A stretch of 64,000 bases of DNA from Burkholderiales bacterium (GTDB lineage: Bacteria; Pseudomonadota; Gammaproteobacteria; Burkholderiales; JACQAP01). The position numbers were made by a program, and so were the translations under genes. This document shows, piece after piece, positions 321 to 54,147 of this stretch (positions are counted from its first letter, which is position 1; every line of letters starts with the position of its first letter). The notes beneath the pieces are model-generated. The model worked only from the letters and a program-made list of their open reading frames with translations. It had not been told where the DNA came from and searched no databases. The stretch is taken from assembly GCA_045810225.1 (NCBI GenBank), contig JBJMWI010000176.1, forward strand, positions 40,583 to 104,582. The letters are read 5' to 3'.

Positions 321-1355
321 ATGCGCTACCGATTGTTGGGCCGTACCGGCCTTCTGGTTTCAGAGATTTGCCTTGGCACCATGACCTATGGCGGCAAGGG
401 TCGCTGGCAGCCCATCGGACAACTTGGACTGCGTGAAGTGGAGGGCCAGATCAAGACTGCATTCAGTGCCGGCATAAATTTCGTCGATACCGCCGATGTC
501 TATTCAGAAGGCGACTCGGAAAGTCTGGTGGGCCAGGCACTAAAAAACTTGAAGCTGCCACGAGAAGAGCTCGTTATCGCAACCAAAGTGCGTATCCGCA
601 TGGGGCCCGGGCCGAACCAAGTGGGTTTGTCGCGCGGACATATCATGGACGGCGTGAATGCGAGCCTGCGGCGCCTGCAGTTGGATCATATCGATCTGTA
701 TCAAATCCACGGCCAAGATTTGGCCACGCCGATGGAAGAAACACTGCGCGCCCTGGAGGATTTGATCCGTTCAGGCAAGGTTCGCTATATCGGGCTGAGC
801 AACCATGCCGCCTGGCAAATCATGAAAGCGGTTTCCATTTCGCAACATCACGGCTGGAATCGTTTCGAAAGTGTGCAGGCGTATTACTCCCTCGCCGGCC
901 GGGATCTAGAACGCGAGATCGTACCGCTGGCGCTGGATCAAGGACTGGGTATTCTGGTCTGGAGCCCACTCGCAGGTGGTCTGCTGTCCGGGAAATTTTC
1001 CGAGAACGATAAAGGACCCCAAGGCGCAAGACGAACCAATTTCGATTTTCCGCCGGTCGATAGGCCGCGCGCTTTTCGTTGTGTTGAGGCCATGCGACCG
1101 ATGGCCCAGTCTCATGGCGTTTCAGTTGCACGTATCGCATTGGCTTGGTTGCTGCATCAGCCGGCGGTCGCAAGCGTAATCGTTGGAGCAAAAACCAACG
1201 AACAACTGTCGGACAATTTAGCGGCTACCGAGCTTCAGCTGTCCGAAGCGGAATTGAAATCGCTCGACGAAGCAAGCAGGCTTCCGCCGGAATACCCGGG
1301 CTGGATGTTTGCCAGACAGAACATGGATCGCTTTCCCGGTGGGTCGATCAAATAG
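321..1355 (+). CDS. aldo/keto reductase family oxidoreductase
   Basis: 344 aa ORF with MRYRLLGRTGLLVSEICLGTMTYGG, DTADVYSEGDSE and IDLYQIHGQD blocks typical of AKR (Kv-beta-like) enzymes. Confidence 0.9.
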   Translation: MRYRLLGRTGLLVSEICLGTMTYGGKGRWQPIGQLGLREVEGQIKTAFSAGINFVDTADVYSEGDSESLVGQALKNLKLPREELVIATKVRIRMGPGPNQVGLSRGHIMDGVNASLRRLQLDHIDLYQIHGQDLATPMEETLRALEDLIRSGKVRYIGLSNHAAWQIMKAVSISQHHGWNRFESVQAYYSLAGRDLEREIVPLALDQGLGILVWSPLAGGLLSGKFSENDKGPQGARRTNFDFPPVDRPRAFRCVEAMRPMAQSHGVSVARIALAWLLHQPAVASVIVGAKTNEQLSDNLAATELQLSEAELKSLDEASRLPPEYPGWMFARQNMDRFPGGSIK

Positions 1356-1484
1356 CGGCTCCATTATCCGGTTGCGCAAACAAGGGGTTTACTCGATTTT
1401 TTGGAGCGACCGATAGCTGGTAAGACGTGTTACGTTCGGTGCGCGTAACATGCACCCGTTGCCAACCCGATAGGATTCTCTTCC

Positions 1485-36025: not shown

Positions 36026-38338
36026 TCATGGTTGTTCATCGATGGCCACGCCGTTGTTCTCACGTCCGTTTGCCGGGCTGCTGCTATGCCGGATGCGAAC
36101 TTGACCATTGAGAAGGCCGCTTGAATAGCGATCGTCACCGCCGCTGTCCAGCAATACGCCAACGCTGTAGACCGGATCGTCGGCCACATAATGGTAGGAA
36201 TTGTCACCGGCTACGCCCTGAGAATCGCCGCTGGACCAGTACATATCATTGCCGCCAGCATCGAACAACCACGCCCCTGACTGTTGCGCGGCGGCGCCCT
36301 GTGCCAGGGATTCAGCACGGTAGAAGTCGTTGCCTGCGCCATCGAACATCATGGCAACCGACTGATCCCAGGCCGCGCCCTGCGCAGCCGCACGCATGGC
36401 CCAATACACATCGTCCCCGGCCAGATCGGAAAACAGTCCGGCAGCCTGATGTGCAGCAAACCCCTGCGTATAGCGTCCGCCGTAGTAGAAATCATTGCCA
36501 CTCGTATCATGCAGCAGACCGGCGCCCCAAAAATAGCCACCGCCCTGGCTGAATTCGCCGCCCTCGTAACGATCATTGCCGGCGAAATCGAGCAAGGCGC
36601 CGAAACCTCCATGGTCGTAGGGCCGAATGCCAAAACCCACACCCTGGCTGAAACTCATGTATGTCGTCGGTGTGCCGTAAGAAGACGGCACCGGGCCGTT
36701 CGCCCGGTACAGATCGTCCCCGCCGAAGTCGATCAGCAGCCCGACACCCGCCGGTCCACCAACGCCTTGGCTCATGCTTTGAGACAGATAGGTGTCCCAG
36801 CCGTCGCCGGCATCAATCAGCACTCCGGCCCCATAAATTCCGGCCCCGGTTGACCAGGCATCGCAGTGATACGTATCCGCGCCTTGCGCATCGAACAACA
36901 AACCAAACCCGAAGGCCCCGGCACCGCAGCCGCCGAGTGCGCTGACGTATGTGTCGTCTCCCGCCATATCGAGCAAAACCGACACCCCGAGCCATCCCGC
37001 TCCTGGTCCGCCCACTTGTGCTTCGTAGCGATCATTGCCAGCGCGATCGATCACGATCTGCGTTTCCAGCGGAACACCGTCGCTCCAGGTGTAGCGATCA
37101 TCTCCGTCAATGTCGATGACCGCATACAGGCGGTCCATGCGGTAATGGTTGGGGCCTGCTCCACCAATAACGATATAACCGCCATCGACTTCAGCGAAAT
37201 CCAAAATTTCCCCGTCCACCATCGCCGCCAGGGCCGCGGGAATCTTGCGTGCGCTCTTGGACGCTTCCGGCACACGGGACGCGGCGATGATGAGCTGATC
37301 GAACGCGTCCAGCAGCGCTGAAAAATCGACTCGCATGCTGGCCTGCATCGCGCGGATGCCTTTCATTGCGTCCCGTTGCTCGATCAAGGTGCGGCTGGTA
37401 GCCGTCTCTTCGAGTAGATAGCGCACGTCACGAAACAATCGTTCACGTGGAGGCGCCGTGCTGAAACCCTCGCGCACCCGCCGGTTCGCTGCTGCAATAG
37501 TCCCGGCGAACACGCTGAGTCCGCCACCGTCTATCGAGTTGGCAGCGACCGGCGACTCGGAATGCATCGAGCTGCAATTGAGCATCAGGATCTCGCACAG
37601 CAGCGGTACGACGCGTTCGCGCGCCTGCCCTGCCGGTTGCATTTCGCCCACAAGCCGATGTTCCCACTCAATCAGCGTGCCGGGATCGGCCAGCGCCTGG
37701 CGGTTCAGGCGCAGTTTGTTGTATCCGTTTTCCTGGCTCGCAAGATCGCCCAGCATTTTTTGCAGGCGTTCGCGTTCCGGCATAAGCGCAGGGGCCGCGG
37801 ACGCGAGCTTTGCCTCCACCATATCCAACCAGACCGGAACGCTACGCGCGGACACTGCCGTAAACGGCACCCGCTGCGGGTAGGCGGCCGGTGTGGCCCA
37901 TTGCTGCAAAGCCCCGACGATGAAATTAACATCGAGCGCTGCGCCATCACGTAGCACGCGTAACGGCAATAGCTGACCGGGCGAAGAGGAGTGCAGCGTC
38001 TCCAGCAGGCGCGCCGCGTTCATTTTCTCCCCTGCCACTGAATCGATTTTATCTCCGGCTTTCAGGCCCGATAGCGTCGCAGGTCCAGCAATGACGTCCA
38101 GGATCACGGGGTTGCCATCGGCATCCTGTCCAAGCGCGAAACCGGCATACGGCACACCTGCCGGTGAGGACTGGGCGGGTGGTGACTCAACGCCCGGGTG
38201 GAAATGCGCGCAGCCGGGAAATAACACCACAGTCACGGCGCACGCGCATAGCTGAAGTAACCGCGCTGCGTGCAGCCTTTGCGCTGGTTCAATACTCGCT
38301 GCTGCTTTCGGTCTGTAGTCACGCGGGCCGGCTGCCAT
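36026..38338 (-). CDS. PDZ domain lipoprotein with a C-terminal array of about 12 degenerate ~26-aa hLhDxxGNDxY repeats (predicted beta-solenoid)
   Basis: Lipobox LFPGC. The PDZ-like segment is ILDVIAGPATLSGLKAGDKIDSVAGEKM. The repeats are listed in the findings. The start is uncertain: the ORF opens at 38401, and internal ATGs at 38350 and 38338 avoid overlap with the divergent chaC. Confidence 0.8.
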   Translation of the reverse strand: MAAGPRDYRPKAAASIEPAQRLHAARLLQLCACAVTVVLFPGCAHFHPGVESPPAQSSPAGVPYAGFALGQDADGNPVILDVIAGPATLSGLKAGDKIDSVAGEKMNAARLLETLHSSSPGQLLPLRVLRDGAALDVNFIVGALQQWATPAAYPQRVPFTAVSARSVPVWLDMVEAKLASAAPALMPERERLQKMLGDLASQENGYNKLRLNRQALADPGTLIEWEHRLVGEMQPAGQARERVVPLLCEILMLNCSSMHSESPVAANSIDGGGLSVFAGTIAAANRRVREGFSTAPPRERLFRDVRYLLEETATSRTLIEQRDAMKGIRAMQASMRVDFSALLDAFDQLIIAASRVPEASKSARKIPAALAAMVDGEILDFAEVDGGYIVIGGAGPNHYRMDRLYAVIDIDGDDRYTWSDGVPLETQIVIDRAGNDRYEAQVGGPGAGWLGVSVLLDMAGDDTYVSALGGCGAGAFGFGLLFDAQGADTYHCDAWSTGAGIYGAGVLIDAGDGWDTYLSQSMSQGVGGPAGVGLLIDFGGDDLYRANGPVPSSYGTPTTYMSFSQGVGFGIRPYDHGGFGALLDFAGNDRYEGGEFSQGGGYFWGAGLLHDTSGNDFYYGGRYTQGFAAHQAAGLFSDLAGDDVYWAMRAAAQGAAWDQSVAMMFDGAGNDFYRAESLAQGAAAQQSGAWLFDAGGNDMYWSSGDSQGVAGDNSYHYVADDPVYSVGVLLDSGGDDRYSSGLLNGQVRIRHSSSPANGRENNGVAIDEQP

Positions 38339-38385
38339 AGGCACGAACATTAGCAGATGTTGTTGCGGCCGGCGCCTGTGGCAAC

Positions 38386-39087
38386 ATGCACTCTGTGACA
38401 ACGAAGTCGAATTTGAAATCGCAAGTCGATCGCGCCTTCCTGGAGAAGGACGGTGTGCGCCAGGCGGTGCGGGATGCCGGACACGGGCATTTGCTTATGT
38501 CCGACCACGACGTGGCTGCCTCGCTCGCCGCAACGCTCGCACTGCATTCCAAAGAAAAGCCGGTCTGGGTATTCGGCTATGGCTCGCTAATCTGGAACCC
38601 GCTGGTGGAATACGCGGAACGCAGGCCGGCGCGCATCCACGGCTTTCATCGCGGCTTCTATCTATGGTCGAAAATCAATCGCGGCTCGCCGAAAATTCCC
38701 GGGCTGGTACTGGGATTGGACCAGGGAGGCTCCTGCGCGGGCATCGCTTACCGGCTGCACGATGACAAATTGGACAGTGAACTGGCATTGCTGTGGCGCC
38801 GGGAAATGTTGATGGGTACTTATCGGCCACGCTGGGTCAGCGCCGATCTCGAAGGCTGCACCGTGCGCGCGATTGCGTTTGTGGTGGACCGCAAAAAGCC
38901 CGGCTACACCGGCCGGCTGCGCGATGAACAAATCGTTTCCATTGCGCTTAAAGCCTCGGGTTACTACGGCTCTTGCGCGGATTACCTGGTCCAGACAGCA
39001 AAAAGTCTGGAGGCGGCCGGCATCGCAGATCAGCGGCTATCGCGCCTGGCAAGAATCGTAGAAACCAAAAGCGCCCGTGTGGGATAA
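38386..39087 (+). CDS. chaC: ChaC-family gamma-glutamylcyclotransferase
   Basis: VWVFGYGSLIWNP ... GFHR.F ... GLVLGLD.GGSC.G.AYRL ... LLWRREM is colinear with E. coli ChaC as I recall it, including the N-terminal DRAFL...AASLAAT region. Confidence 0.85.
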   Translation: MHSVTTKSNLKSQVDRAFLEKDGVRQAVRDAGHGHLLMSDHDVAASLAATLALHSKEKPVWVFGYGSLIWNPLVEYAERRPARIHGFHRGFYLWSKINRGSPKIPGLVLGLDQGGSCAGIAYRLHDDKLDSELALLWRREMLMGTYRPRWVSADLEGCTVRAIAFVVDRKKPGYTGRLRDEQIVSIALKASGYYGSCADYLVQTAKSLEAAGIADQRLSRLARIVETKSARVG

Positions 39088-42137: not shown

Positions 42138-45134
42138 TCATGTCGTGCTCGTCCATTCCCTCCAGCCGCGCAACAGCGGAAAGTACAGGCCCATGCGCGT
42201 CGCCCCGAGAGCGTGCGCGTAACGAGCCAACTGCGGTGCGTAACGTTCGCGCTCTCGCTCCAGAAAGGCCTCGATGTTCGCGCCTTCATGGCGGCTGGTC
42301 TTGTAATCGACGACCCACCACGTACCATCCGCATCGCGAATGCGGCGGTCGATCACATGGCGCCTGCCGTCTTGCGTATGCACCGCGTATTCGGTCCACG
42401 CTTCGGCGTGCGGACCCATCAGCCATCTGCCGCGCTCGTCCAGCAAGGTATTGCTTAAGGCGGTAGAGACAAGATCGGCTGCTACTTTTAGTTCAGAGTC
42501 TGGAACGCCATGCCGCCGCAGTTCGCTGCAAAACCGCGGCCACAATGAAACGACCCGCTGCGTGCTCCAGCCCTCCAGCGCATCATCCGCCATCCGCTGC
42601 AACCAACGGTGGACAATCGTCCCGACTTGCCGGGCCGTTTCTCCGGCCCAGGAGAACTCGATCTGCTGTTCTTCGCTTCGTCCGTTCGGCGCATTCCAAC
42701 GCACAGCGTCGGGCGCTGACGGGAGCTTGAGCCCGGACGCTATACGCCTGAGCATATACGCTGGCTCGGCGGCTGCGGTTTGGGGCGCCACCGGCACGCG
42801 ATCCAGTCCAGCGAAAATCTCCTGCGCGAGCGGCCACGCCTGTGCCAGAAGCGAGCGCTTATCCGGGGCTTTAAGTTGGCCCGCCTCGTCGAGTTTCACG
42901 CAGGCTAGAAGGTGCAAGCGCCTGGCGGCGCGAGTGGCGGCGACATAGAGAAGGCGTGCGGTCTCGGCATCTTCGGCAGCGCGGTCCAGGCGCCGCAGGT
43001 ATTCATAGACCGGGTCTTTGTCAGCGCCGGTTTCTTTGATGGGCGCGAGCAGTAACCCGGTCACAGCCGATGCGGCCGCTCCCTTGTCCTGAAGACCTTC
43101 CGCAAAAACCAGTTCCTTCCACAGAAAAAGCGGCGAGTCATCGGTACCGGAGATTTTGTCCAGGCCGGGAACGATGACCGTGTCGAATTGCAGGCCCTTG
43201 GCCTTGTGAATGGTCATGATTTGCAGATCGTCGTCGCTGGAGGCGACATCGGGCAGCGCGTAGAGCTCGCTCAGGCTGCCGGCAAGCGCGGCGAAGTCGG
43301 GAGGCGAGCCGGACGCCTCAAGCTTCGAAAGTTCATCGAGGAAGATCTCGGCGTCCTCTAGGTCGGTCTCGTTCTCGACGCACGCGGGACCACCGAGCGC
43401 GAGCCAGACGCCTTCGACGCGATCGCGCAAGCTGCCGCGGCCGCGCTCGGCAAGCGCCGGCCCGAGGACGCTTCTGAAATTGGCAAGGAAAAGGTTGTCC
43501 TGGATCAGTTCCCAAATGGTGGCGAAGCGATCGGCTGCCGCAATCTGATGCAGATCACTCAGCGCCAGGCCGATCCACGGCGCGCGCAGCAGCGAGAGCC
43601 AGGCAATTCGATCGCCGAGGTGCGTCAGGGCGCGCGCGATCGCGTAGAGGTCTTGCACGACCTGTTTCTCATGCAGTCGCTCGATCTCGATGGCCCGAAA
43701 GCGGATGCCCGCGCTTCTGAGGGCGGGAATAATTTCGGCAAGCGCATCACGATTGCGCACCAGAATCGCCGCACGCCCCTCAGCCCGGTGCACGAGCTGC
43801 ACGACACTGCGCGCCTCGTGGGCGCGATCAGGACTGTTGGTCCACAAAACAGCCGGCCCGCCCAGCTGCGGCTTTTCAGGGTGCGGCGTCGCGGCTGAAT
43901 AGGGCACTGCGCCAGACACGGGATCCGCCGCCGTCGGCAGGATTTGGCTGAAGGTGTCATTGAACCAATCGACAAGGCCAGCGTGCGAGCGAAAGTTGGT
44001 CGTGAGCGTCAGCGACTTGAGGTGCACGCTGCCGAGGCCTTCGCTTTGCGCCTTGAGAAACAACGCGACCTGCGCGTCGCGGAATCGATAAATCGACTGC
44101 ATCGGGTCGCCGACCAGGAACAGGGTCCGGCCATCGTTCGGCTGCCAGCCCGAGGTGAGCAGCACAAGCAGCTCCCATTGCGAGAAAGAGGTGTCCTGAA
44201 ACTCGTCCACCAGGAGGTGGCGTACGCGCGCATCCATCGACAGGAGCAGGTCGGTCGGCGCCTCGGCCGTGCCCAACGCGCGTACGGCGCCCTGGGCGAT
44301 TTCGGTGAAGTCTGCCTCGCCACGCTCTGCGAACACGACCCTCAGTTGCGCGGCCGCAAGTGGCAGCAGCTCAATGAGCGATTGCAGGACCTGCCACTGC
44401 GCATCGCTGTAGCGCTCGGGCGGCATGCGAAGCAGGTCCGACAACGCCTGGCGCAGCGGTTCGTTGCCGGAGAGCGCCATGGCCTCGGGGACCTTCTTGC
44501 GCCAGCTATTCTTTTTGGTCAGCATAGCCTCGGCGAACTCGGCAGAGGCTTGCGGATGCAGTACGCGGGCCTTTGCCAGAAAGCGGCTGCGCTCGGAGCG
44601 GAGACAGGATTCGAGCTCGCTGCGCGTGGGCGCGGCGCCAGTTTTGCGCAGCCATTGGTCGCGCTTGGCGAGCATCGAGCCGATCAGCGAGGTAGCCGTG
44701 TCGATGTTGTTATCGAGGTGGGCAAGCAATGCTTCGACCGAAGGAGACAGATCCTTAAGCGTGCGTCTGGCCGCCTCGCGGTAATGCAGGCGCGCATCCT
44801 CGACGATTTGCGGCTGGGCACCGAAACGCGACAGCACCGGCATTTGCCGTGTAAGCGCGGCGCACAGCGCGTCGAACGTCTGGATGCGAAGCCGGTGCGC
44901 GATGTCGGCGGCGTTTGGCAGCTTCTCGAGTACGCGCTCGCGCATCTCGGCGGCGGCCTTGATGGTAAAGGTGATGGCTACGATTTCTTCGGGCTTCTCG
45001 ACCGTGCCAAGGAGCCGGATGTAGCGCTTTACCAGCAGTTCGGTTTTCCCCGATCCGGCGGGCGCCTGCACAATGAACGAGCGTTCCGGGTCAAGCGCCG
45101 CATCGCGGGCGAGCTGGTCGGCAAGCGCGCTCAT
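42138..45134 (-). CDS. addA: AddA-type UvrD-family helicase / PD-(D/E)XK nuclease
   Basis: Start taken at MSALADQ (ATGA overlap with the upstream stop). Walker A APAGSGKTE, DEFQDTS (motif II), and a C-terminal nuclease block VIDRRIRD...WWVVDYKT. Confidence 0.82.
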   Translation of the reverse strand: MSALADQLARDAALDPERSFIVQAPAGSGKTELLVKRYIRLLGTVEKPEEIVAITFTIKAAAEMRERVLEKLPNAADIAHRLRIQTFDALCAALTRQMPVLSRFGAQPQIVEDARLHYREAARRTLKDLSPSVEALLAHLDNNIDTATSLIGSMLAKRDQWLRKTGAAPTRSELESCLRSERSRFLAKARVLHPQASAEFAEAMLTKKNSWRKKVPEAMALSGNEPLRQALSDLLRMPPERYSDAQWQVLQSLIELLPLAAAQLRVVFAERGEADFTEIAQGAVRALGTAEAPTDLLLSMDARVRHLLVDEFQDTSFSQWELLVLLTSGWQPNDGRTLFLVGDPMQSIYRFRDAQVALFLKAQSEGLGSVHLKSLTLTTNFRSHAGLVDWFNDTFSQILPTAADPVSGAVPYSAATPHPEKPQLGGPAVLWTNSPDRAHEARSVVQLVHRAEGRAAILVRNRDALAEIIPALRSAGIRFRAIEIERLHEKQVVQDLYAIARALTHLGDRIAWLSLLRAPWIGLALSDLHQIAAADRFATIWELIQDNLFLANFRSVLGPALAERGRGSLRDRVEGVWLALGGPACVENETDLEDAEIFLDELSKLEASGSPPDFAALAGSLSELYALPDVASSDDDLQIMTIHKAKGLQFDTVIVPGLDKISGTDDSPLFLWKELVFAEGLQDKGAAASAVTGLLLAPIKETGADKDPVYEYLRRLDRAAEDAETARLLYVAATRAARRLHLLACVKLDEAGQLKAPDKRSLLAQAWPLAQEIFAGLDRVPVAPQTAAAEPAYMLRRIASGLKLPSAPDAVRWNAPNGRSEEQQIEFSWAGETARQVGTIVHRWLQRMADDALEGWSTQRVVSLWPRFCSELRRHGVPDSELKVAADLVSTALSNTLLDERGRWLMGPHAEAWTEYAVHTQDGRRHVIDRRIRDADGTWWVVDYKTSRHEGANIEAFLERERERYAPQLARYAHALGATRMGLYFPLLRGWREWTSTT

Positions 45135-47725
45135 TCCTGGTGCTCCTGCAGTACGTTCAGTTTCTCGTAGACCCGGCACAAGGTCTGCAGATCGCACAGG
45201 CGGCAGGTGGCAAGCTCGTTCCTCGGATCAACGCGCGCGTCGCCCGCTGCAAATGCGATGCCCAGAGACTCCGCCTCCTTGCGCCACAGCGTGAACAATC
45301 CCTCCCAGTCGCGCCGCTGCTCCACATTGGGAATACTGTGCGCATCGCGCGAGTAGCCCATGTATTTCATGTCGCCGGGCCTGAGCTTGGCGAAAGTCAC
45401 GGCGGCAATGTCCTCCTTCGCGCTGATCGCGTAAAGCGCGAGTTGCGGCTCGTCGGGACGCGGCGGGTCCCAATGCTTTGGCGATACCATGTTGCCGGTC
45501 TTGTAATCGATGAGTGCGTGGCCCCCGGATTGGAGCTTGTCGAGGCGGTCGATGCGGCCGGAAAATTCCAGACCGGCGACCGCGATGGTGCGCGTTTCCT
45601 CCAGTGCGGAAATATCAAAACCGCTGCGCGTCTTCTCAAGCTCGAGCCATTCACGCGCCAGCCGCGCGAGACGCACCCGCTCAAGTTCGGCAAAGCGTCC
45701 TTCGATGCCAAGTTCTTTGACGGCGGCCTGCGCTGCGCGAGTGATGACCGACTCGAGATCGCCATGCAGATTGCGGCTCGACTGCAGATCGGTCCAGATG
45801 TTCCTCATCAAAGCATGCAGCAGCCTGCCACGGTCGGACGCATCGAGCCCGGCTGCCGGTTCATCGAGGACTTCGGCGTGAAGGCGCCAGCGTGCATACG
45901 CGCGGAACGGGCAGGCTGCCTGATCGGCCAGGACACGGGTGCCGCCGCGCACCGATTTCCCGGTGATGCGCGGTGCGGTGTTGTCGGCAACCAACTCGAG
46001 GCTCCCGTTCGCGAACAGCACATCCCGATAACGCGGGAAGTCGGGCAGCGCGATCTCGCCCTGTGCGACGTCGAGGATCAGCGGGCTGGGCGCAAGATTA
46101 TGATCCGCCTCCTGCTGCGCATGCGAGAACACGACTTCCTGCGCCGCTACTTTCCAATCAGCGGTCAGGCGCCGATCGAGTTCAAGCGAGCCTTCGGCAC
46201 TCGCCGCCGGAATGCCAGCCTTTTTTTGTAGCGCAATGGGAATGAAGGGGTTGGCGCGCGCCGCTAATGGCCAGGCCTCATCGGTGAGTCCGCTGACCCA
46301 CAGGCAATCGAAGCGCAGGCCTGCAGACTCGAGGATGCCGAGCACCTGGATCGGCATTTGCCCCGATTCGGGCTGGAACAGTGTGTCGCTGCACAGACGC
46401 TGCAGCGCGACTATGGCCCCTTCGATACTCATCGCGCGTGACACGCTTTGCAGTGCCGACAATTCGTTTAACAGTTCATGCCACTTTGCGAGCGTCTGAA
46501 ACTCGTCCGAGTCGAGCGCCCGTTCGCCTGGAAATCCGGCGGCATCGAGCAGCGCCGAAAAACGCCGGGCCCAGCCGCTTGGCGTCTGGTCGACGGATTC
46601 CTTCGCAACCGAAAGAACAGCTTCGAGTCGCGCACGTAACACCGGGCAGTCGGGGACCAGGGCAATGAGCTTGGGCAGCGTCACGCTCGCGTCGATCGTG
46701 CGGCGTACTCTCGCATCAAGCCGCGCGCGGCGCTCCATTTCTGATTCCGCGCCGCCGAGAAACGGCGAACGGATCAAGCGGCTTGCGACAGTAAACTCCA
46801 CCTCGTGGAAGCAGAACCGGATCAGGTCGAGGGCAGCGGCGACCAGCGCATATTGCGCCAGTGGCTGGCCGATGGATACGTTGCACGGCAACGTTGCCTT
46901 TTCAAGGCCAGGAAGGTTATAGCCAGGCTGCATGACGCGCGAAAACATGCGCACGACTTCCTCGCGTCGCTGCTGCAATTCGGGCACGACCACACCGATA
47001 CGCCTTGAACCCTGTTCGAGCCTGGCGCGCGCCCATGCGGCTGCGCTTTCGAGCTCCAGCTTTGCGGAGGCGAAGGAGGTGCGCACCACTGAACCCTGCA
47101 GCGGCTCCGCCTTGCATACTGCCCACGTGAACTTGTTGAGGAAGGCAATCGTCTGCGGCGGCAGGATGTCGAACCCATAGGCGACCACGAGCTTCGGTTT
47201 GTTCAACCGGTCCAGGAGACCCGTCATGAGATCCGGCAGGCGGGCGCTGTCGGTCTGACCTCGGGTCTTGTCGTCGTAACTTGCGCACCAGAAATTAAAA
47301 GCAGCGGCGTCCTCATTGCCTGCCTGGGTAGCGATGCGCCAGGCATGCCGCAACCGCCAAGCGTCGCGACATTGCGCGGCCGCTTGTGCAATTGACAGCA
47401 GGGCACTTTGACCTACGATCTGCTCCCAGAGCGACTGCTCCTGAGACGGAGTGATCAGCAGCGGAAGCTGTGGCGTGATGTCCGAGTAAAGCGCGTCCTC
47501 GTAAAGTCGCTCCACCAGAGTGCCGAACGGCACAATATCCGCGGGTTCCCAAGCGCTGAGGCCCAAGGCGATCTGTGTCTCGTCGAATTCACGTGCAAGC
47601 GTCTGCGCAAGGCGCCGATTAGGCGTCACGACTACAATGCCAGCGCAATGTCCAGTTGACAGACGCGTGAAGAGTTCACGCTTTGGCAGTATCGGGAAAT
47701 CCGCGCCGACGGTCATGGGCGCCAA
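45131..47725 (-). CDS. addB: AddB-type PD-(D/E)XK nuclease subunit (Fe-S cluster type)
   Basis: No intact helicase motifs were seen. The nuclease motif is GRIDRLD...ALIDYKTG. Cys ligands are ACPFRAY plus the C-terminal CRLCDLQTLC. It is translationally coupled to addA. Confidence 0.8.
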   Translation of the reverse strand: MAPMTVGADFPILPKRELFTRLSTGHCAGIVVVTPNRRLAQTLAREFDETQIALGLSAWEPADIVPFGTLVERLYEDALYSDITPQLPLLITPSQEQSLWEQIVGQSALLSIAQAAAQCRDAWRLRHAWRIATQAGNEDAAAFNFWCASYDDKTRGQTDSARLPDLMTGLLDRLNKPKLVVAYGFDILPPQTIAFLNKFTWAVCKAEPLQGSVVRTSFASAKLELESAAAWARARLEQGSRRIGVVVPELQQRREEVVRMFSRVMQPGYNLPGLEKATLPCNVSIGQPLAQYALVAAALDLIRFCFHEVEFTVASRLIRSPFLGGAESEMERRARLDARVRRTIDASVTLPKLIALVPDCPVLRARLEAVLSVAKESVDQTPSGWARRFSALLDAAGFPGERALDSDEFQTLAKWHELLNELSALQSVSRAMSIEGAIVALQRLCSDTLFQPESGQMPIQVLGILESAGLRFDCLWVSGLTDEAWPLAARANPFIPIALQKKAGIPAASAEGSLELDRRLTADWKVAAQEVVFSHAQQEADHNLAPSPLILDVAQGEIALPDFPRYRDVLFANGSLELVADNTAPRITGKSVRGGTRVLADQAACPFRAYARWRLHAEVLDEPAAGLDASDRGRLLHALMRNIWTDLQSSRNLHGDLESVITRAAQAAVKELGIEGRFAELERVRLARLAREWLELEKTRSGFDISALEETRTIAVAGLEFSGRIDRLDKLQSGGHALIDYKTGNMVSPKHWDPPRPDEPQLALYAISAKEDIAAVTFAKLRPGDMKYMGYSRDAHSIPNVEQRRDWEGLFTLWRKEAESLGIAFAAGDARVDPRNELATCRLCDLQTLCRVYEKLNVLQEHQE

Positions 47726-48430: not shown

Positions 48431-48757
48431 ATGAACGAGCATATACATCACATCACCGACGACACGTTCGAACCGGAGGTGCTTCAGTCCCAGGTTCCGG
48501 TATTGGTGGATTACTGGGCCGAATGGTGCGGGCCGTGCAAAATGATTGCGCCTATCCTTGACGAAGTCGCGACCGAGTATTCGGGTCGGCTTAAAGTGGC
48601 CAAGCTCAATATCGACGAGAATCAGGGTACGCCGCCGAAGTATGGCATCCGGGGCATTCCCACACTGATGCTGTTCAAGAACGGCAACATTGAAGCCACC
48701 AAGGTCGGTGCCGTATCTAAATCGCAACTTACGGCCTTTATTGACAGCAATATCTAA
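48431..48757 (+). CDS. trxA: thioredoxin
   Basis: 108 aa with [18 protein letters not shown]. Confidence 0.97.
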
Positions 48758-48890: not shown

Positions 48891-50150
48891 ATGCATTTGT
48901 CCGACCTGAAAAACCTCCACGTAACCGAACTCGTGGAGATGGCAATCTCCAACGAAGTCGAGAATGCCAACCGAATGCGCAAGCAGGACCTGATTTTCGC
49001 GCTATTGAAAAATCAGGCCAAAAAAGGCGAGAGCATTTTCGGTGAAGGAACCCTCGAAGTACTCCCAGACGGTTTCGGATTCCTGCGATCTCCGGACACC
49101 TCTTATCTCGCCGGGCCTGATGACATATATGTCAGCCCGTCCCAGATACGTCGATTCAATCTGCATACGGGCGATTCAATCGAAGGAGAGATTCGAACCC
49201 CTAAAGACGGTGAACGCTATTTCGCGCTGGTCAAGGTAGACAAGGTCAACGCGGAACCTCCCGAGAATTCCAAGCACAAGATACTGTTCGAGAACCTGAC
49301 TCCGCTTTTTCCTACCGAGCAATTCAAGATGGAGCGGGACATCAAGTCAGAAGAAAACCTTACCGGCCGCATCATCGATATCATTGCGCCGATCGGCAAA
49401 GGCCAGCGCGGCCTCCTGGTGGCCAGCCCGAAAAGCGGCAAGACCGTCATGCTGCAGCACATTGCACACTCCATCGCAGCCAATTTCCCGGATGTCTATC
49501 TGATTGTGCTGCTCATTGACGAGCGTCCCGAAGAAGTTACGGAAATGCAGCGTTCGGTCAAAGGTGAAGTGGTGTCGTCGACTTTCGATGAACCGGCCAC
49601 CCGCCATGTGCAGGTCGCCGAGATGGTGCTGGAAAAAGCGAAGCGGCTGGTGGAGCACAAAAAACATGTCGTAATCCTGCTCGATTCCATTACTCGTCTT
49701 GCCCGGGCATATAACACAGTGGTACCAGCTTCGGGCAAGGTATTGACGGGCGGCGTGGATGCCAATGCACTGCAGCGGCCGAAGCGATTCTTCGGCGCCG
49801 CGCGCAACATTGAAGAAGGCGGATCGCTAACCATTATCGCGACCGCGTTGATCGACACGGGCTCCCGCATGGACGATGTGATTTACGAAGAATTCAAGGG
49901 CACCGGCAACATGGAAATCCATCTCGATCGCCGAATGGCGGAGAAACGGATCTATCCTTCAATCAACGTGAACCGTTCCGGTACGCGCCGCGAAGAGTTG
50001 CTGATCGAGAAAGATATCCTGCAGAAGATCTGGGTTTTGCGGAAACTGCTTTATCCCATGGACGAGCTGGAAGCGACCGAATTCCTCGTCGATAAACTGC
50101 GCGGTACCAAGAATAACGCGGATTTTTTTGACTCCATGCGGCGTGGATAG
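48891..50150 (+). CDS. rho: transcription termination factor Rho
   Basis: [24 protein letters not shown], the RNA-binding domain, P-loop ASPKSGKT and [18 protein letters not shown]. It ends with a TAG TAG double stop. Confidence 0.97.
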
Positions 50151-50340
50151 TAGCGGGGATGGGATAATTCGCGCCCTGCCCGCTCGAGCGTGACTCGTTA
50201 GCCGCAGGCCCGTTTGCGGGAACACGAGACAGACTCGGCATTGGTATGTTTCCACGCTCTCCCTGACTCGGCTCCGCCCCAAGCTACGCCCGCCGGAGAG
50301 CCGAGTCCGGCCGGCTACGCCCGTAACGAGTCCGGGCTCG
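50053..50340 (+). repeat. tandem duplication unit 1 (rho codons for the last ~32 aa, spacer, and structured element copy A)
   Basis: Colinear with 50341-50628 at an offset of 286-288 nt. Identity is mosaic (details in the findings). Confidence 0.85.
50173..50306 (+). repeat. structured ~133-nt element, copy A
   Basis: It differs from copy B at 5 positions by my alignment. Nested inverted repeats are present: 50184-50200 pairs with 50324-50341, 50202-50206 with 50215-50219, and 50265-50274 with 50298-50307. Confidence 0.8.
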
Positions 50341-50438
50341 ATCCCTTGGACGAGCTGGAAGCAACCGAATTCCTCGTCGATAAACTGCGCGGCACCAAGA
50401 ATAACGCGGACTTCTTCGATTCAATGCGAAGAGGTTAA
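50341..50438 (+). pseudogene. detached second copy of the rho 3' end (codes [30 protein letters not shown]-stop)
   Basis: 98 nt align with 50053-50150. I count 13 nt differences in 12 codons: one M->L change, ten synonymous changes and a TAG->TAA stop change. Confidence 0.8.
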
Positions 50439-50459
50439 CGTTTGTCGACGAAGTCCCGT

Positions 50460-50593
50460 GCCCTACCCGCTCGAGCGTGACTCGTTAGCCGCAGGCCCGT
50501 TTGCGGGAACGCGAGACCGACTCGGCGTTGGTATGTTTCCACGCTCTCCCTGACTCGGCTCCGCCCCAAGCTACGCCAGCCGGAGAGCCGAGG
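50460..50593 (+). repeat. structured ~133-nt element, copy B
   Basis: Same sequence as copy A apart from 5 substitutions. A possible alternative closing arm AACGAGTC lies at 50632-50639. Confidence 0.8.
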
Positions 50594-50696
50594 CCGCCGA
50601 ATACACCGATGACGAGTTGCGTGCTATTCAGCAACGAGTCGGCTTGCATATCGGATAACGGCCCCCATTTAGAACCTGTGATGCACTGTCCCGGGG

Positions 50697-50725
50697 TTGC
50701 CAATCGGGGGATTCCTGTGGATAAT
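50697..50725 (+). promoter_or_regulatory. candidate sigma-70 promoter for rpmE
   Basis: TTGCCA (50697-50702), a 17-nt spacer, then GATAAT (50720-50725), about 50 nt upstream of the rpmE ATG. Confidence 0.4.
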
Positions 50726-50774
50726 CCGCCCCCTTCGGAAGCGCAAATCCCGCTTTCAACAGAAAGGAATCGAC

Positions 50775-51002: not shown

Positions 51003-51023
51003 AACAGCAAAGCGTCAGGAGAA

Positions 51024-51046
51024 GAGGCAGCGAAGGCTGCCTCTTT
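51024..51046 (+). terminator. intrinsic terminator after rpmE
   Basis: GAGGCAGC-gaag-GCTGCCTC followed by TTTGCGTTT. Confidence 0.6.
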
Positions 51047-51207: not shown

Positions 51208-52869
51208 ATGCTTCGCCCTGCTCATCTATTGCGCAGCGATAGATTCGCCACGCACATCAGCGAAAATCCGGTCACGCTCGCAGTCGGGCTCTGCATAGCA
51301 TGGATTCTACTGGGGCTGATCGGGCATGATCCGTGGAAGCCGGATGAGGCCCACATCTTTGGTGTCGTGTATCAGTTGCTGAAGGGAAGTGACTGGGTTA
51401 TCCCGCAGCTTGCTGGAGAACCTTATCTCGACAAACCACCGCTCATTTATCTAACGGCCGCGTTGACCAGCTCACTGTTCTCGCCCGTTTTGGCATTGCA
51501 TGATGGAGCTCGACTAGCCGCAGGCCTGTATATCGCTGTCACCATGTTGTTTGTAGCGATAACTGCAAGCGAACTATACGGGGGCAACAAGAGCTGGGTC
51601 GCCGCCCTCATGTTGCTGGGCTGCGGAGGTCTGCTGTTGCGTGGACACCAGCTGATCCCCGACACCGCGTTTGTGGCGGGAACCGCGATCGGGCTTTACG
51701 CACTCGCCATTTCGGCACGCAGGCCGCTGATCGCAGGGTTATGGTTGGGTACGGGTCTCGGCGTTTGCTTTTTGTCAGAAGGTTTTGTGGAACCGGTCAT
51801 GCTCTTGATGACCATGGCCCTGTTGCCGGTTGTCTCTCCGTATTGGCGTACGAGGCAGTATTTATGGACCATCATCATTGCCGTCGTAGCCGCGCTCCCA
51901 TGGGCCGTAATCTGGCCGCTGCTACTGGAAGCACGCTCCCCGCGCCTATTTTCTGAATGGTTCTGGGTCAAAAACATCGATAGATTAAAAAGCATTTTCA
52001 TATTCACGCCGGATGAAAATTACCTTTACTATCTGACTGTGCTGCCTTGGCTTGCTTGGCCTGCATGGCCTTTCGCGGTGTGGAGCCTCTGGGCAGAAGG
52101 GCGAGCCGGGCTGCAGAAGCCGGGGGTCATTCTTCCTTTGACGGCATTTGTTGCGTTCTTCGTCTTTCTCAGCATTCTCGGCGAGGGGCGTGACAGGTTC
52201 GGCATGCCATTGCTGCTGCCGATCTCACTTCTTGCTGTTGTATCGTTCGAAAGCCTGCGGCGGGGAGCGGCCAATCTTTACTACTGGTTCGCAATAATTC
52301 TGTTCAGTTTTTTTGCGGTCGTAGGCTGGTTTTACTGGATGGCAATCGACCTCGGTATTCCGTCCCGGCTGTGGAAACATATGATGGACATGCAGCCAGC
52401 TTATCAGGCTGGGGAAAGCGCTTTCTCAGTGGCGCTTGCGGCGGCCTTTACGATTGCCTGGTTTGTGCTGCTATTCAATGTCAAGCGCCGGCCCGAGCGA
52501 CCGGTCATTACGTGGGCAGCGGGAATCACATTACTGTGGGCACTTGTAACCTTGCTGTTGGTCCGATACATCGATACTGGTAAAACATACCGGGCCGTAT
52601 TCAATCAGTTGTCACAGGCATTGCCCGCCGGCCATGGCTGCATTTACAGTCGTTCACTGGGCGAGCCTCAAAGGGCCATGCTGGATTATTTCGGACATAT
52701 TCTGACAGTGAGGCTTGAAAAAAAGGGCAAGCGCCCCGATTGCGACTTATTAATCATTCAAGACAAGTGGCAGTTTCCGACGCAGGTGGAAGCCCCCTGG
52801 AAGCTAATCTGGGAAGGGCGCCGCCCCGGCGACAAATTGGAACGCTTCAGGCTCTATCGACAACCATGA
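51208..52869 (+). CDS. GT39/ArnT-like membrane glycosyltransferase (undecaprenyl-phosphate-sugar-dependent type)
   Basis: 553 aa polytopic protein. The N-terminal HDPWKPDEAHIFGVVYQLL...YLDKPPLIYL matches the ArnT/PMT-family first-loop motif. Confidence 0.8.
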   Translation: MLRPAHLLRSDRFATHISENPVTLAVGLCIAWILLGLIGHDPWKPDEAHIFGVVYQLLKGSDWVIPQLAGEPYLDKPPLIYLTAALTSSLFSPVLALHDGARLAAGLYIAVTMLFVAITASELYGGNKSWVAALMLLGCGGLLLRGHQLIPDTAFVAGTAIGLYALAISARRPLIAGLWLGTGLGVCFLSEGFVEPVMLLMTMALLPVVSPYWRTRQYLWTIIIAVVAALPWAVIWPLLLEARSPRLFSEWFWVKNIDRLKSIFIFTPDENYLYYLTVLPWLAWPAWPFAVWSLWAEGRAGLQKPGVILPLTAFVAFFVFLSILGEGRDRFGMPLLLPISLLAVVSFESLRRGAANLYYWFAIILFSFFAVVGWFYWMAIDLGIPSRLWKHMMDMQPAYQAGESAFSVALAAAFTIAWFVLLFNVKRRPERPVITWAAGITLLWALVTLLLVRYIDTGKTYRAVFNQLSQALPAGHGCIYSRSLGEPQRAMLDYFGHILTVRLEKKGKRPDCDLLIIQDKWQFPTQVEAPWKLIWEGRRPGDKLERFRLYRQP

Positions 52870-53735
52870 ACGATTCACTTCAACGGTTTCTACTAGAAAG
52901 TACGCCAGTTCGCGGCGAAATTGCGCATCTGGACGCGACCTGGCGCGCCGTACTCGAACGGCGCAATTATCCCGCCCCATTAGAGCGACTGTTAGGAGAG
53001 ATGATGACAGCGGCCGCGCTGCTGTCCGCGACGCTGAAGTTCGAAGGCTCCCTGATAATGCAAATGCAGGGCAGCGGCCCGGTGCAACTGCTGGTCGTCG
53101 AAGCAACCAGTGAACAGACTCTGCGCGCGACGGCGAAATGGGACGGGGAGCTACCCGATGGTAATGTGACTGATTTGCTGGGCTCGGGGCGCTTTGTGAT
53201 CTCGATTGTGCCTTCGAACGGCAGACAGGCGTATCAGGGCGTGGTCAGCATCGAAGGGAAAAGTATCGCCCAAGTGCTTGAGCATTACATGGCGAAATCC
53301 GAACAGCTTGAAACTCGCCTGTGGCTCGCCTCCAATTCCAACCAAGCGGCCGGAATGCTGTTGCAAAAGCTGCCGGCAACATTGAGCGAAGATGCAGACG
53401 CCTGGAACCGCGCGACCCGGATCGGTGAAACAATCAAGCCCGAGGAGCTGCTGAGCTTGCCGGCGCCCGAGATTATTCGTCGGTTATATCATCAGGAAGA
53501 CGTCCGGGTGTTCGAGCCGAGGCCAGTAGCATTCCGCTGCTCGTGCTCGCACGACCGCGTCACTTCCATGTTGCGCATGCTGGGGCACGATGAAGTGCGT
53601 TCAATCATTGAAGAGCGCGGCAACGTGGAGGTCGACTGCGAATTTTGCGGTCGCCACTACGTTTTCGATGCAGTCGATGCGGAACAGGTGTTTGCGGCGG
53701 ATGTCATCATGCCGGCTGAGAAAACCAGGCACTGA
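52866..53735 (+). CDS. hslO: redox-regulated chaperone Hsp33
   Basis: Start at MNDSLQRFL (ATGA overlap with the upstream stop). VRGEIAHLD is present, with the C-terminal zinc centre CSCS...CEFC. Confidence 0.9.
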   Translation: MNDSLQRFLLESTPVRGEIAHLDATWRAVLERRNYPAPLERLLGEMMTAAALLSATLKFEGSLIMQMQGSGPVQLLVVEATSEQTLRATAKWDGELPDGNVTDLLGSGRFVISIVPSNGRQAYQGVVSIEGKSIAQVLEHYMAKSEQLETRLWLASNSNQAAGMLLQKLPATLSEDADAWNRATRIGETIKPEELLSLPAPEIIRRLYHQEDVRVFEPRPVAFRCSCSHDRVTSMLRMLGHDEVRSIIEERGNVEVDCEFCGRHYVFDAVDAEQVFAADVIMPAEKTRH

Positions 53736-53751
53736 GCAGCATTTGACTGCG

Positions 53752-54147
53752 ATGACTGAACCCGATACGCGCGTTCGAATAGACAAATGGTTGTGGGCGG
53801 CCCGCTTTTACAAAACGCGCAGCCTCGCAGCCGATGCGGTGGATTCCGGCAAAGCGAAGCTCAATAGCGAACGCGTGAAACCGGCAAAGCTGGTAAAGCC
53901 GGGAGACGTGTTGTCCATCCGCAATGGACAATCGAGCTGGGAAGTTACCGTGCTTGTGTTGAGCGAGCGTCGCGGTTCGGCCATGGTTGCTTCCATGCTT
54001 TATTGCGAATCAGACGACAGCCGGATGCAGCGAGAACGGCAGAGCGCCAGGCTAAAGGCGGAACGCATTGCAAATCCGTTTCCCGGCGGGCGCCCCACGA
54101 AACGGGCACGCCGGCAGATCATCCGGTTCATACGTGAACAAGAGTGA
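53752..54147 (+). CDS. hslR: heat shock protein 15 (S4-domain RNA-binding protein)
   Basis: VRIDKWLWAARFYKTRSLAADAV.SGKAKLN....KPAK.VK.GD is the S4 domain pattern of HslR. Confidence 0.85.
   Translation: MTEPDTRVRIDKWLWAARFYKTRSLAADAVDSGKAKLNSERVKPAKLVKPGDVLSIRNGQSSWEVTVLVLSERRGSAMVASMLYCESDDSRMQRERQSARLKAERIANPFPGGRPTKRARRQIIRFIREQE

Follow-up and report, generated by a model that had tools for sequence, protein, structure and literature searches.

The 64,000-nucleotide stretch analysed here (the window) belongs to a contig of a Burkholderiales bacterium (assembly GCA_045810225.1, contig JBJMWI010000176.1, positions 40,583 to 104,582), and our subject is the 3' end of its essential gene rho, which is present there twice. 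On the plus strand, trxA (48431-48757) is followed by rho (48891-50150, 419 amino acids in the list of open reading frames, or ORFs) and by rpmE, which encodes ribosomal protein L31 (50775-51002, with a terminator at 51021-51046). The Pfam domains Rho_N, Rho_RNA_bind and ATP-synt_ab are found on contigs whose Rho protein is identical to that of the window. A single tandem array lies at 50053-50596 (period 287, 1.9 copies, 87% matches; Tandem Repeats Finder), and it agrees with a repeat search of the window (pairs of 140 nt at 95% identity and of 102 nt at 86%) and with pairwise alignment in defining two colinear units of ~288 nt, A at 50055-50342 and B at 50343-50628. The tandem repeat described in a first-pass annotation of the sequence is thus real, and its unit starts (50053 and 50341) need adjustment: the repeat proper begins at ~50053-50055 in the first copy and at ~50341-50343 in the second, with the junction codon (TAT/GAT) outside it. 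A self-BLAST found no other copies of the units in the window.

Each unit opens with a copy of the gene end, and all features are on the plus strand unless stated otherwise. In unit A this copy is the functional tail in which rho terminates (tail A, 50055-50150, the last 31 codons and the stop); in unit B it is a silent tail (tail B, 50343-50438), recognised by codon comparison with tail A and by its match to the functional tail of a relative, L084 (L numbers denote the related loci and contigs compared). The last ten codons of tail A (GAT TTT TTT GAC TCC ATG CGG CGT GGA TAG) and a 19-nt spacer at 50151-50169 (TAGCGGGGATGGGATAATT) together occupy 50121-50169, and their counterpart at 50409-50455 consists of GAC TTC TTC GAT TCA ATG CGA AGA GGT TAA and a 17-nt spacer at 50439-50455 (CGTTTGTCGACGAAGTC). 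Behind either spacer stands a palindromic element, the core, which in the window is split by an insert, E. The 5' half of the first direct core (50170-50183, CGCGCCCTGCCCGC), delimited by alignment with relatives that lack E, provides the 5' strand of an outer stem and the start of hairpin 1; E copy A (123 nt, 50184-50306) is nested in the loop of that hairpin; and the 3' half (50307-50342), with hairpin 2, an unpaired TAACGAGTC and the 3' strand of the outer stem, stops at the junction with tail B. E copy A holds a complete inverted core (covariance-model match at 50178-50233, minus strand) and a hairpin with 13-nt arms (50262-50274 paired with 50298-50310), and the model gives a weak match at 50293-50346 for the direct core. 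In unit B the 5' half lies at 50456-50470 (CCGTGCCCTACCCGC), E copy B (124 nt, 50471-50594) likewise holds an inverted core (model match at 50465-50520, minus strand), and the 3' half, compared with L100 and L082, is degenerate (50595-50645), comprising TGACGAGTT and a relic, GCAACGAGTCGG, that resembles TAACGAGTC.

Because E holds an inverted core, and because relatives without E (L083 unit 1, L103 and L082) have a plain AAA loop at that position, the "133-nt structured element" of the first-pass annotation is a nested pair of palindromic elements, and this composite differs between the units at 7 of 140 nt rather than at 5 of 133. No third tail is recognisable in 50595-50645; a decayed one considered at 50618-50645 was dropped, the stretch resembling the core relic GCAACGAGTCGG, and a real tail relic occupies the equivalent site in L082. 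A promoter-like site of rpmE (50697-50725, TTGCCA-17-GATAAT) is kept in relatives and bounds the variable region distally. Spacer A (GGGATGGGATAATTCGCGCCC) is weakly similar to the -10 region of this promoter at 50716-50734 (CCTGTGGATAATCCGCCCCC; 14/16 nt, E-value ~8), which might reflect an outward-facing promoter in the module or chance.

The identity between the units is mosaic, as had been noticed at first pass and as pairwise alignment reproduces. Over the last 32 codons, tails A and B differ synonymously at 11 codons, and a codon-by-codon comparison confirms that every one of the last ten except ATG has changed (10/30 nt, against 3 differing nt in the 63 nt upstream; Fisher p = 5e-4). 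The claim that the divergence is synonymous only holds for these codons and fails at a single site in the repeat, where ATG is replaced by TTG (Met to Leu; 50058 versus 50346). When ten random substitutions were placed in the last ten codons, the peptide DFFDSMRRG* was kept in 0/300,000 trials. The two spacers are unrelated in sequence, and the units diverge by ~5% in E and in the first 66 nt of the tail.

Relatives show where a tail of the second type is in use. The body of the L084 rho is 93-94% identical to that of the window, while in the last 30 nt identity to tail A falls to 67%; tail B matches the functional L084 tail at 29/30 nt. Tail type also tracks the downstream spacer. A-type tails go with GGATGGGATAA, a linkage present in L081, L085, L082, L083 unit 2, L100 and L105; B-type tails go with ACGAAGTCCGGCGCGCT, this spacer following AGA-GGY-stop tails in L097 unit 2 and L099 unit 2 and a CGT-GGT-TGA tail in L094 unit 1; and a third type is common to L099 unit 3 and L101. 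The best explanation for these alignments is that the last ten codons and the spacer would form an exchangeable cassette, of which A and B would be two old alleles. The left edge of the cassette is the short-type junction of other lineages and its right edge is the start of the palindrome. Since the ~5% divergence outside the cassette is the ordinary between-lineage level in this group, and the cassette alone shows a deep A/B dimorphism, patchy conversion of an old duplication, a scenario offered at first pass, is not required to explain the mosaic. Another of its scenarios, in which the second tail derives from a functional rho allele of diverged sequence, by recombination or by a small insertion bringing a replacement gene end, is supported in substance by L084 and by the same anatomy in many lineages and at a second gene, and we read tail B as the once-working end of a related allele.

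The palindromic core element

Every extra tail in the window's clade is preceded by a core of ~57 nt. Its outer stem, of 6-8 bp, encloses first hairpin 1 (CCCG-CAAR-CGGG) and then hairpin 2, whose sequence varies and which has a triloop; the unpaired TAACGAGTC comes next, before the 3' strand of the outer stem closes the element. Among 19 aligned cores, 91.8% of the cells are paired, versus 27-42% in slid controls, and the covariation score is 0.467 versus 0.139 after shuffling, with 0/500 shuffles reaching the observed value. The outer stem carries double changes in all seven pairs, that is, it covaries and is not conserved in sequence. A covariance model (R1) returned 26 strong matches (59-75 bits) in 585 kb, in both orientations and confined to three kinds of site: the end of rho, the end of hslR and the region downstream of rpmE. 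No Rfam family matches the core at the locus, in the whole window or in four related arrays; the sole Rfam match, RsmY-like and lying over the rpmE 3' end and terminator, is a chance one (E-value 0.29). The core is a new conserved structured element, supported by covariation and outside Rfam. The aligned copies lack a GTAG motif, and of the paired RYYYAAC and GTTRRRY sites of attC only the TAAC half is conserved, with no GTTRRRY partner.

Relative to the palindrome, the position at which the core meets the following tail is fixed. In all three junction classes (rho short tail, rho long tail and hslR) the repeat starts 16-20 nt past the T of TAAC, a point that coincides, within 0-2 nt, with the 3' foot of the outer stem; the window, at 17 nt, matches other loci with long tail copies. 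One and the same foot joins three different target positions with 0-2 nt of microhomology. Short extra tails measure 27 nt (TTYTTYGAY..., encoding FFDSMRRG*) and long ones 96 nt (CCC ATG GAC..., ending in ...RRG*). In arrays of the core family the repeat mostly stops at the stop codon and the following spacers are unrelated between units, the exceptions being L103 and, in a second family, L027 and L078, where repeats extend 12-26 nt beyond the stop.

This second family comprises GC-rich multi-hairpin elements that lie between duplicated rho tails in other Betaproteobacteria and share CTCCGCCCT...CTAC (L027 1667-1777; L032 4261-4664; L033; L078 4361-4440; L006 4261-4330), with direct repeats reaching 22-26 nt past the stop. 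A motif like theirs (GGCTCCGCCCCAAGCTAC) occurs inside insert E, at 50271-50288. On L097, two inverted cores 180 nt apart lie past the rpmE terminator (1196-1434, minus strand), each preceded on its own strand by the same ~45-nt direct repeat ending in TGA, which could be a tail carried from another gene.

Silent tails in relatives and at a second gene

About 50 related loci were compared overall. The Rho protein led to 80 species-representative loci, among which the window's own species is not included, because the best Rho match has 93% amino-acid identity; contigs L081-L085 encode exactly the window's Rho protein, and a degenerate DNA pattern of the tail retrieved the 19 metagenome contigs L093-L111. 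Tail repeats are present in 6/80 of the species representatives (L001, L006, L027, L032, L033 and L078) and in at least 9 of the 19 tail-pattern contigs. In many Betaproteobacteria one to four silent copies of the last 9 codons (27 nt) or the last 32 codons (96 nt) lie 3' of rho, extra tails being seen in the window, L083, L094, L096, L097, L099, L103, L106, L107, L001, L027, L032, L033 and L078. Their number and size vary: L001, L027 and L033 have one additional 27-nt copy each, L032 has three in tandem 134-nt units, L006 has a copy of at least 55 nt and L078 one of 81 nt plus 26 nt past the stop, while L096 shows three tails in series. Relatives are not limited to the one or two units that the first-pass annotation had envisaged, since L081 has one unit, L083, L097 and L103 have two with long tails, and L099 carries five tails in series. 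The arrays reflect a recurrent process, not a single event.

The divergence among stacked tails is overwhelmingly silent. In 19 distinct pairs of consecutive tails, 57 synonymous versus 2 nonsynonymous codon differences were counted, both of the latter in the most distal L099 tail, a ratio that is inflated by the way in which tails were found, through a peptide pattern with at most two mismatches allowed. If whatever follows each core is tracked, ~11 tails are intact and ~5 decayed or truncated, and the decayed or truncated ones are always the most distal (the fifth of L099, the third of L096, and those of L082, L101 and L123). Serine codons switch between TCG and AGC in L094, L096 and L033, a change unreachable by silent single steps. 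Randomised substitutions kept the peptide in at most 2/60,000 trials for 6/9 pairs tested, including those of L094, L083, L033, L096 and two of three from L099; pairs with 3-5 differences were less extreme. Displaced tails are in functional use elsewhere: units 3 and 4 of L099 match the functional units of L101 and L097, and identities of 88-91% link the displaced units of L083 and L099 to units that are functional in the window, L097 and L101.

The core model also matched the 3' end of a second gene, hslR (Hsp15, with an S4 domain), in L101. Close homologues of hslR in the protein database have two genuine C-termini, ...RRQIIRFERKQG and ...RRQIHRFFEENE, which are homologous allelic variants; the second, or FFEENE, tail is functional in 12/120 homologues. 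Empty and filled sites are both observed. In L121 and L122 the gap between hslR and the thiolase gene is 178 nt, the FFEENE tail (RRQIHRFFEENE) is functional and no palindrome is present. In L118 and L120 the gap is 301 nt and a 124-nt module, consisting of the ERKQG tail (RRQIIRFERKQG) with its stop, a 46-nt spacer and the core, has supplied the new tail, the FFEENE tail being displaced and intact; the two tails encode different C-terminal sequences. L119 has two identical modules (gap 425 nt), and L123, of a different lineage, has an older, decayed array (433 nt). The hslR module is flanked by an 11-nt repeat (CGCCGCCAGAT), and it has the palindrome alone in common with the rho modules, the tails being gene-specific. 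The window, L101 and L118 share the gene order rho, rpmE, PMT_2 glycosyltransferase, hsp33 (52740-53735 in the window), hslR and thiolase. The window's own hslR site (ORF 53590-54147, likely start near 53750) is empty, ending in RRQIIRFIREQE followed by ~70 nt without a palindrome.

Unit number varies at the level of strains. Among contigs with identical or 99.9% identical rho, or with identical RpmE, the gap between rho and rpmE is 337, 382, 555, 625 (the window) or 843 nt. L081, whose Rho protein is identical and whose rho DNA is 99.9% identical, corresponds to the window except that 288 nt are missing and its E is chimeric; it is the product or the substrate of recombination between two E copies. 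Several contigs with identical RpmE end inside E, and runs of 100-101 N stand exactly at the repeated rho tails of two scaffolds of metagenome-assembled genomes (MAGs), L006 (4386-4486) and L078 (4227-4326), which look like scaffolding gaps due to the repeat. The same two-unit architecture and junction occur on independent contigs of diverged lineages (L097, L083, L103 and L099).

A sister clade has one or two small lipoprotein genes, with a weak DUF2846 match under the Pfam cut-off, between rho and rpmE (L001/L093, L095/L108, L096, L098, L106, L107, L109 and L111). In L109 a decayed short rho tail (TTCGACAGCATGCAGCGCAGTTAG) follows the lipoprotein gene, ~0.7 kb downstream of rho, and this position suggests that a gene-carrying module can also displace the rho tail.

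Proposed displacement by recombination and its alternatives

We consider it probable that the heteroduplication of the window arose by 3'-end displacement, through recombination with diverged functional alleles and nucleated by a mobile palindrome similar to repetitive extragenic palindromic (REP) sequences. More generally, the compared sequences suggest rather than prove that palindrome-bounded modules repeatedly replace the ends of housekeeping genes and stack the old ends downstream. Such a module would consist, in this order, of a replacement rho tail, its stop codon, a short spacer and the GC-rich palindrome of ~57 nt. It would join rho in frame through recombination with DNA of a diverged lineage, leaving Rho intact and the formerly functional tail silent right behind the 3' foot of the palindrome, and repeated rounds would stack tails. 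In the window, unit A carries the tail in use, and unit B a silent tail whose sequence is that of an allele still functional in a relative whose rho is 93% identical. The transferred piece would comprise tail, stop, spacer and palindrome together with a further tail copy, exchanged between lineages by homologous recombination, with the left crossover in rho and the right one in the displaced tail copy, which could thereby serve as a portable right-hand homology arm; for the incoming DNA, a linear form or a small circle like that proposed for Rhs tips is conceivable. Units would later be lost or multiplied when repeated tails, cores or E copies recombine with one another.

The first palindrome-tail junction at each site would demand a non-homologous event stimulated by the palindrome. 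The junction always lies at the outer-stem foot, which suggests that the palindrome itself is its cause. The palindrome might act as a stalling or template-switch point that gives rise to tandem duplications, or else be a small mobile element whose insertion duplicates a long stretch of the target, as L103, L027 and L078 would seem to illustrate.

In general the proximal tail is the newest, because the functional tail must be fused to the gene, distal copies decay, and the native tail of hslR has been displaced distally. The first-pass annotation had taken the second tail to be the acquired one, which runs counter to this trend and which L081 and L100 nevertheless make possible for the window. 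As to age, L082 has just a decayed B-like relic at the place equivalent to tail B, and tail B is too well preserved for an ancient relic, which points to its having been recently acquired, or refreshed from an L084-like functional allele.

Several observations weigh against displacement by allelic recombination. In L081 and L100 an A-type tail is contiguous with the core 3' half and the rpmE flank of the window's B unit, so that the 288-nt segment with tail B could be an insertion in this lineage via recombination at E, for instance of an integrating circle. In L103 a 111-nt repeat flanks the 57-nt core on both sides, which fits the insertion of an element better, and the 49-nt repeats of L027 and 107-nt repeats of L078 around their elements fit insertion with a long target duplication. 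Between lineages, displaced units resemble their counterparts no more closely than the rho bodies resemble each other, and hence give no proof of very recent transfer. No enzyme or intermediate was seen, the modules being non-coding and 97-290 nt long, and the Pfam scan of 42 window ORFs (the 38 largest non-overlapping ones plus two AddAB-like genes, a ferredoxin gene and the PMT_2 gene; 40 with other Pfam matches and 2 with none) revealed no recombinase, transposase or reverse transcriptase family. RNA folds of the whole units are no more stable than shuffled ones (z = -0.7 and -0.5). The comparison data come nearly all from short metagenome contigs, and the inflation of the 57:2 count belongs here as well.

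An alternative is an active miniature element, in which the palindrome would be a functional end moved in trans by a hairpin-recognising enzyme (an HUH/Y1 transposase or a site-specific recombinase), either carrying a variable upstream flank, the gene tail, or making target duplications of 11-111 nt, with homologous recombination as a secondary process. We regard this as rather unlikely. It would account for the 3' terminus being fixed at the outer-stem foot in three independent junction classes, for the presence of one core at rho, at hslR, inverted 3' of rpmE and nested inside another core (in E), for the direct repeat-element-direct repeat form of L103, L027 and L078, for the conserved unpaired TAACGAGTC and CAAR beside covarying stems, as in hairpin sites that are read by proteins, and for the identical head-to-tail units of L107, L119 and L032. 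However, no copy is linked to a transposase or recombinase; copy number looks low, the window having the core at the rho locus only; gene-specific, target-homologous tails are explained by recombination between alleles without an enzyme; the two copies made by a target duplication start out identical, and most tail pairs here are heterologous; and duplication lengths of 11-111 nt are unlike those of most transposases. A related proposal keeps a substantial, if less than even, chance: the core, with its three helices, could be the active end of an undescribed non-autonomous mobile element that colonises the 3' coding ends of conserved genes with a gene-specific replacement tail, moved by a hairpin-recognising enzyme and using the conserved gene as a homology arm between species.

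A purely local origin, in which an old tandem duplication of the rho end and its 3' untranslated region was shaped by patchy conversion and drift with no foreign allele, is very improbable and largely refuted. The tandem structure itself agrees with it, the identical tail copies in L001, L103, L107 and L078 show that homogenisation or fresh duplication occurs, and the polymorphism between L081 and the window is a simple recombination between two E copies. Ten silent and zero replacement changes could not, however, have accumulated in a non-functional copy, as the 300,000 trials illustrate; spacers A and B are unrelated, tail B equals the working L084 tail at 29/30 nt, and the linkage of tail and spacer types holds across lineages.

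We give hardly any credence to selection on the distal tail in place, whether as a small peptide started at ATG, TTG or CTG or as an RNA decoy or regulator of rho, and the corresponding first-pass scenario of a second tail under coding selection is not sustained. Tails do remain intact despite many silent differences, long copies start at a Met codon whose variants TTG and CTG are possible starts, and a window ORF (50214-50438) enters tail B in frame. Against this, tail-to-tail spacing is not a multiple of three at most loci (127, 134-135, 97 and 133 nt in relatives), conservation is lacking for the upstream ORF, inspection found neither a conserved start nor a ribosome-binding site before the tail, the short 9-codon copies are preserved as well as the long ones, the most distal copies decay (with a Leu to Pro change in L097 tail 2), and the displaced hslR tail differs in protein sequence from its replacement. 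The same spacing rules out in-frame read-through or an extension of Rho.

Least credible is an assembly artefact, that is, a chimeric join of two co-occurring strains with A-type and B-type ends, for although the related MAG scaffolds L006 and L078 have N runs at repeated tails, several contigs break inside E, and A-type and B-type alleles co-occur in similar samples, the junction (core 3' half, GAT, CCC-TTG-GAC) is unique and homologous to those of the independent diverged contigs L083, L097, L099 and L103, and joining two one-unit alleles would give one unit and not a tandem.

A DNA uptake sequence or Chi-like signal was also considered and ruled out (GACTCG occurs 16 times and CGAGTC 12 times in the 64 kb). 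Viral contigs scanned with the tail pattern, a 16-mer of E and the core pattern gave chance matches only, one of them inside a phage tail-fibre gene, and a plasmid BLAST gave no match.

Known systems and neighbouring genes

The closest parallel to 3'-end displacement is found in rhs genes. The model proposed for them is that homologous recombination within the conserved portion brings in a laterally acquired end, perhaps from a circular intermediate, and moves the resident end downstream (Jackson et al. 2009, PMC2935791). Orphan tips of Rhs and contact-dependent inhibition systems resemble the rho arrays in that detached 3' fragments, each with some conserved upstream coding sequence, are arrayed behind an intact gene (PMC2935791), and in both cases the displaced ends are attached to the gene in relatives, as here in L084, at units 3-4 of L099 and for the FFEENE end of hslR. 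In contrast, the genes affected here are housekeeping genes, the essential rho and hslR, with no toxin or immunity cargo; the new ends of Rhs are non-homologous and change the protein, whereas rho tails encode the same peptide and hslR tails are homologous variants; and the modules here, of ~100-290 nt, are each bounded by a conserved structured palindrome.

Integrating elements offer a second parallel. The element e14 in icd supplies a replacement gene end (PMC13626634), and in tycheposons partial tRNAs are stacked, older arrivals being pushed distally (bioRxiv 10.1101/2020.12.28.424599). As with e14 or phage 21 in icd (leaving icdC) and with tRNA islands, copies of the gene end flank the insert, in the manner of attL and attR, the supplied copy has mainly silent differences that keep the gene working, and newcomers push older ends distally. 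Unlike those elements, the inserts here measure 97-290 nt, two orders of magnitude less, and contain no integrase or any other gene, and one palindrome serves different genes with gene-specific tails.

The core is also reminiscent of REP sequences and bacterial interspersed mosaic elements, which are short GC-rich palindromes just 3' of genes, in both orientations, nested or mosaic and in tandem units; arrays of neisserial intergenic mosaic elements are comparable extragenic palindromes. It differs from REPs associated with REP-associated tyrosine transposases in that inspection found no GTAG-type 5' motif and copy number looks low, and the Y1 transposase family had no match among the window ORFs scanned. 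We know of no description of REPs at the junctions of gene-end duplications from different alleles, and our literature search found no report of rho-end duplications or of REP-linked gene-end duplications.

Integron cassette arrays are similar as serial modules that each end in an imperfectly palindromic site, with the newest proximal and older ones distal; here, however, no paired GTTRRRY core site was found by inspection, and a tail is carried in place of an ORF of the module's own. Identity with attC or an integron is ruled out on motif grounds, and IntI, attI and the integrase family are lacking among the window ORFs scanned. Set against miniature inverted-repeat transposable elements with target-site duplication, and against elements with long direct repeats such as IS1634, the observations point both ways: L103, L027 and L078 have the repeat-element-repeat form, while the outer stem covaries instead of keeping its sequence and most other loci have heterologous tails. 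A diversity-generating retroelement is ruled out, the differences being mostly T/C and G/A at third positions plus CGT/AGA and not adenine-specific, and no reverse transcriptase of a variable-repeat/template-repeat retroelement had a family match among the ORFs scanned.

Altogether, these comparisons suggest that the structure belongs to a broader phenomenon, the palindrome-bounded 3'-end displacement of housekeeping genes in Betaproteobacteria, of which we found no earlier description in the literature. Polymorphic toxin genes and the attachment sites of prophages and islands are the known settings of gene-end displacement; here it would affect essential housekeeping genes, use tiny non-coding modules and leave the Rho protein unchanged. 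The stacked tails would constitute a record of past recombination with other lineages, so that interspecies exchange at rho could be read directly, and the 3' foot of the core would be the recombination junction of a newly defined structured element. The strain-level hypervariability in length also has a practical side, as it breaks metagenome assemblies at a universal marker gene. If it is true that an enzyme moves the element, this would amount to a new transposition strategy.

Further upstream, AddA-like and AddB-like genes lie at 42138-47725 on the minus strand, ~0.7 kb upstream of trxA and with a ferredoxin gene between them; in one a UvrD-type helicase is fused to a PD-(D/E)XK nuclease, the other is a PD-(D/E)XK nuclease, and neither has an evident tie to the repeat. 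The two scanned ORFs without a Pfam match at an E-value of 1e-5 or below are at 36026-38401 (791 amino acids) and 2258-2866 (202 amino acids), both on the minus strand.

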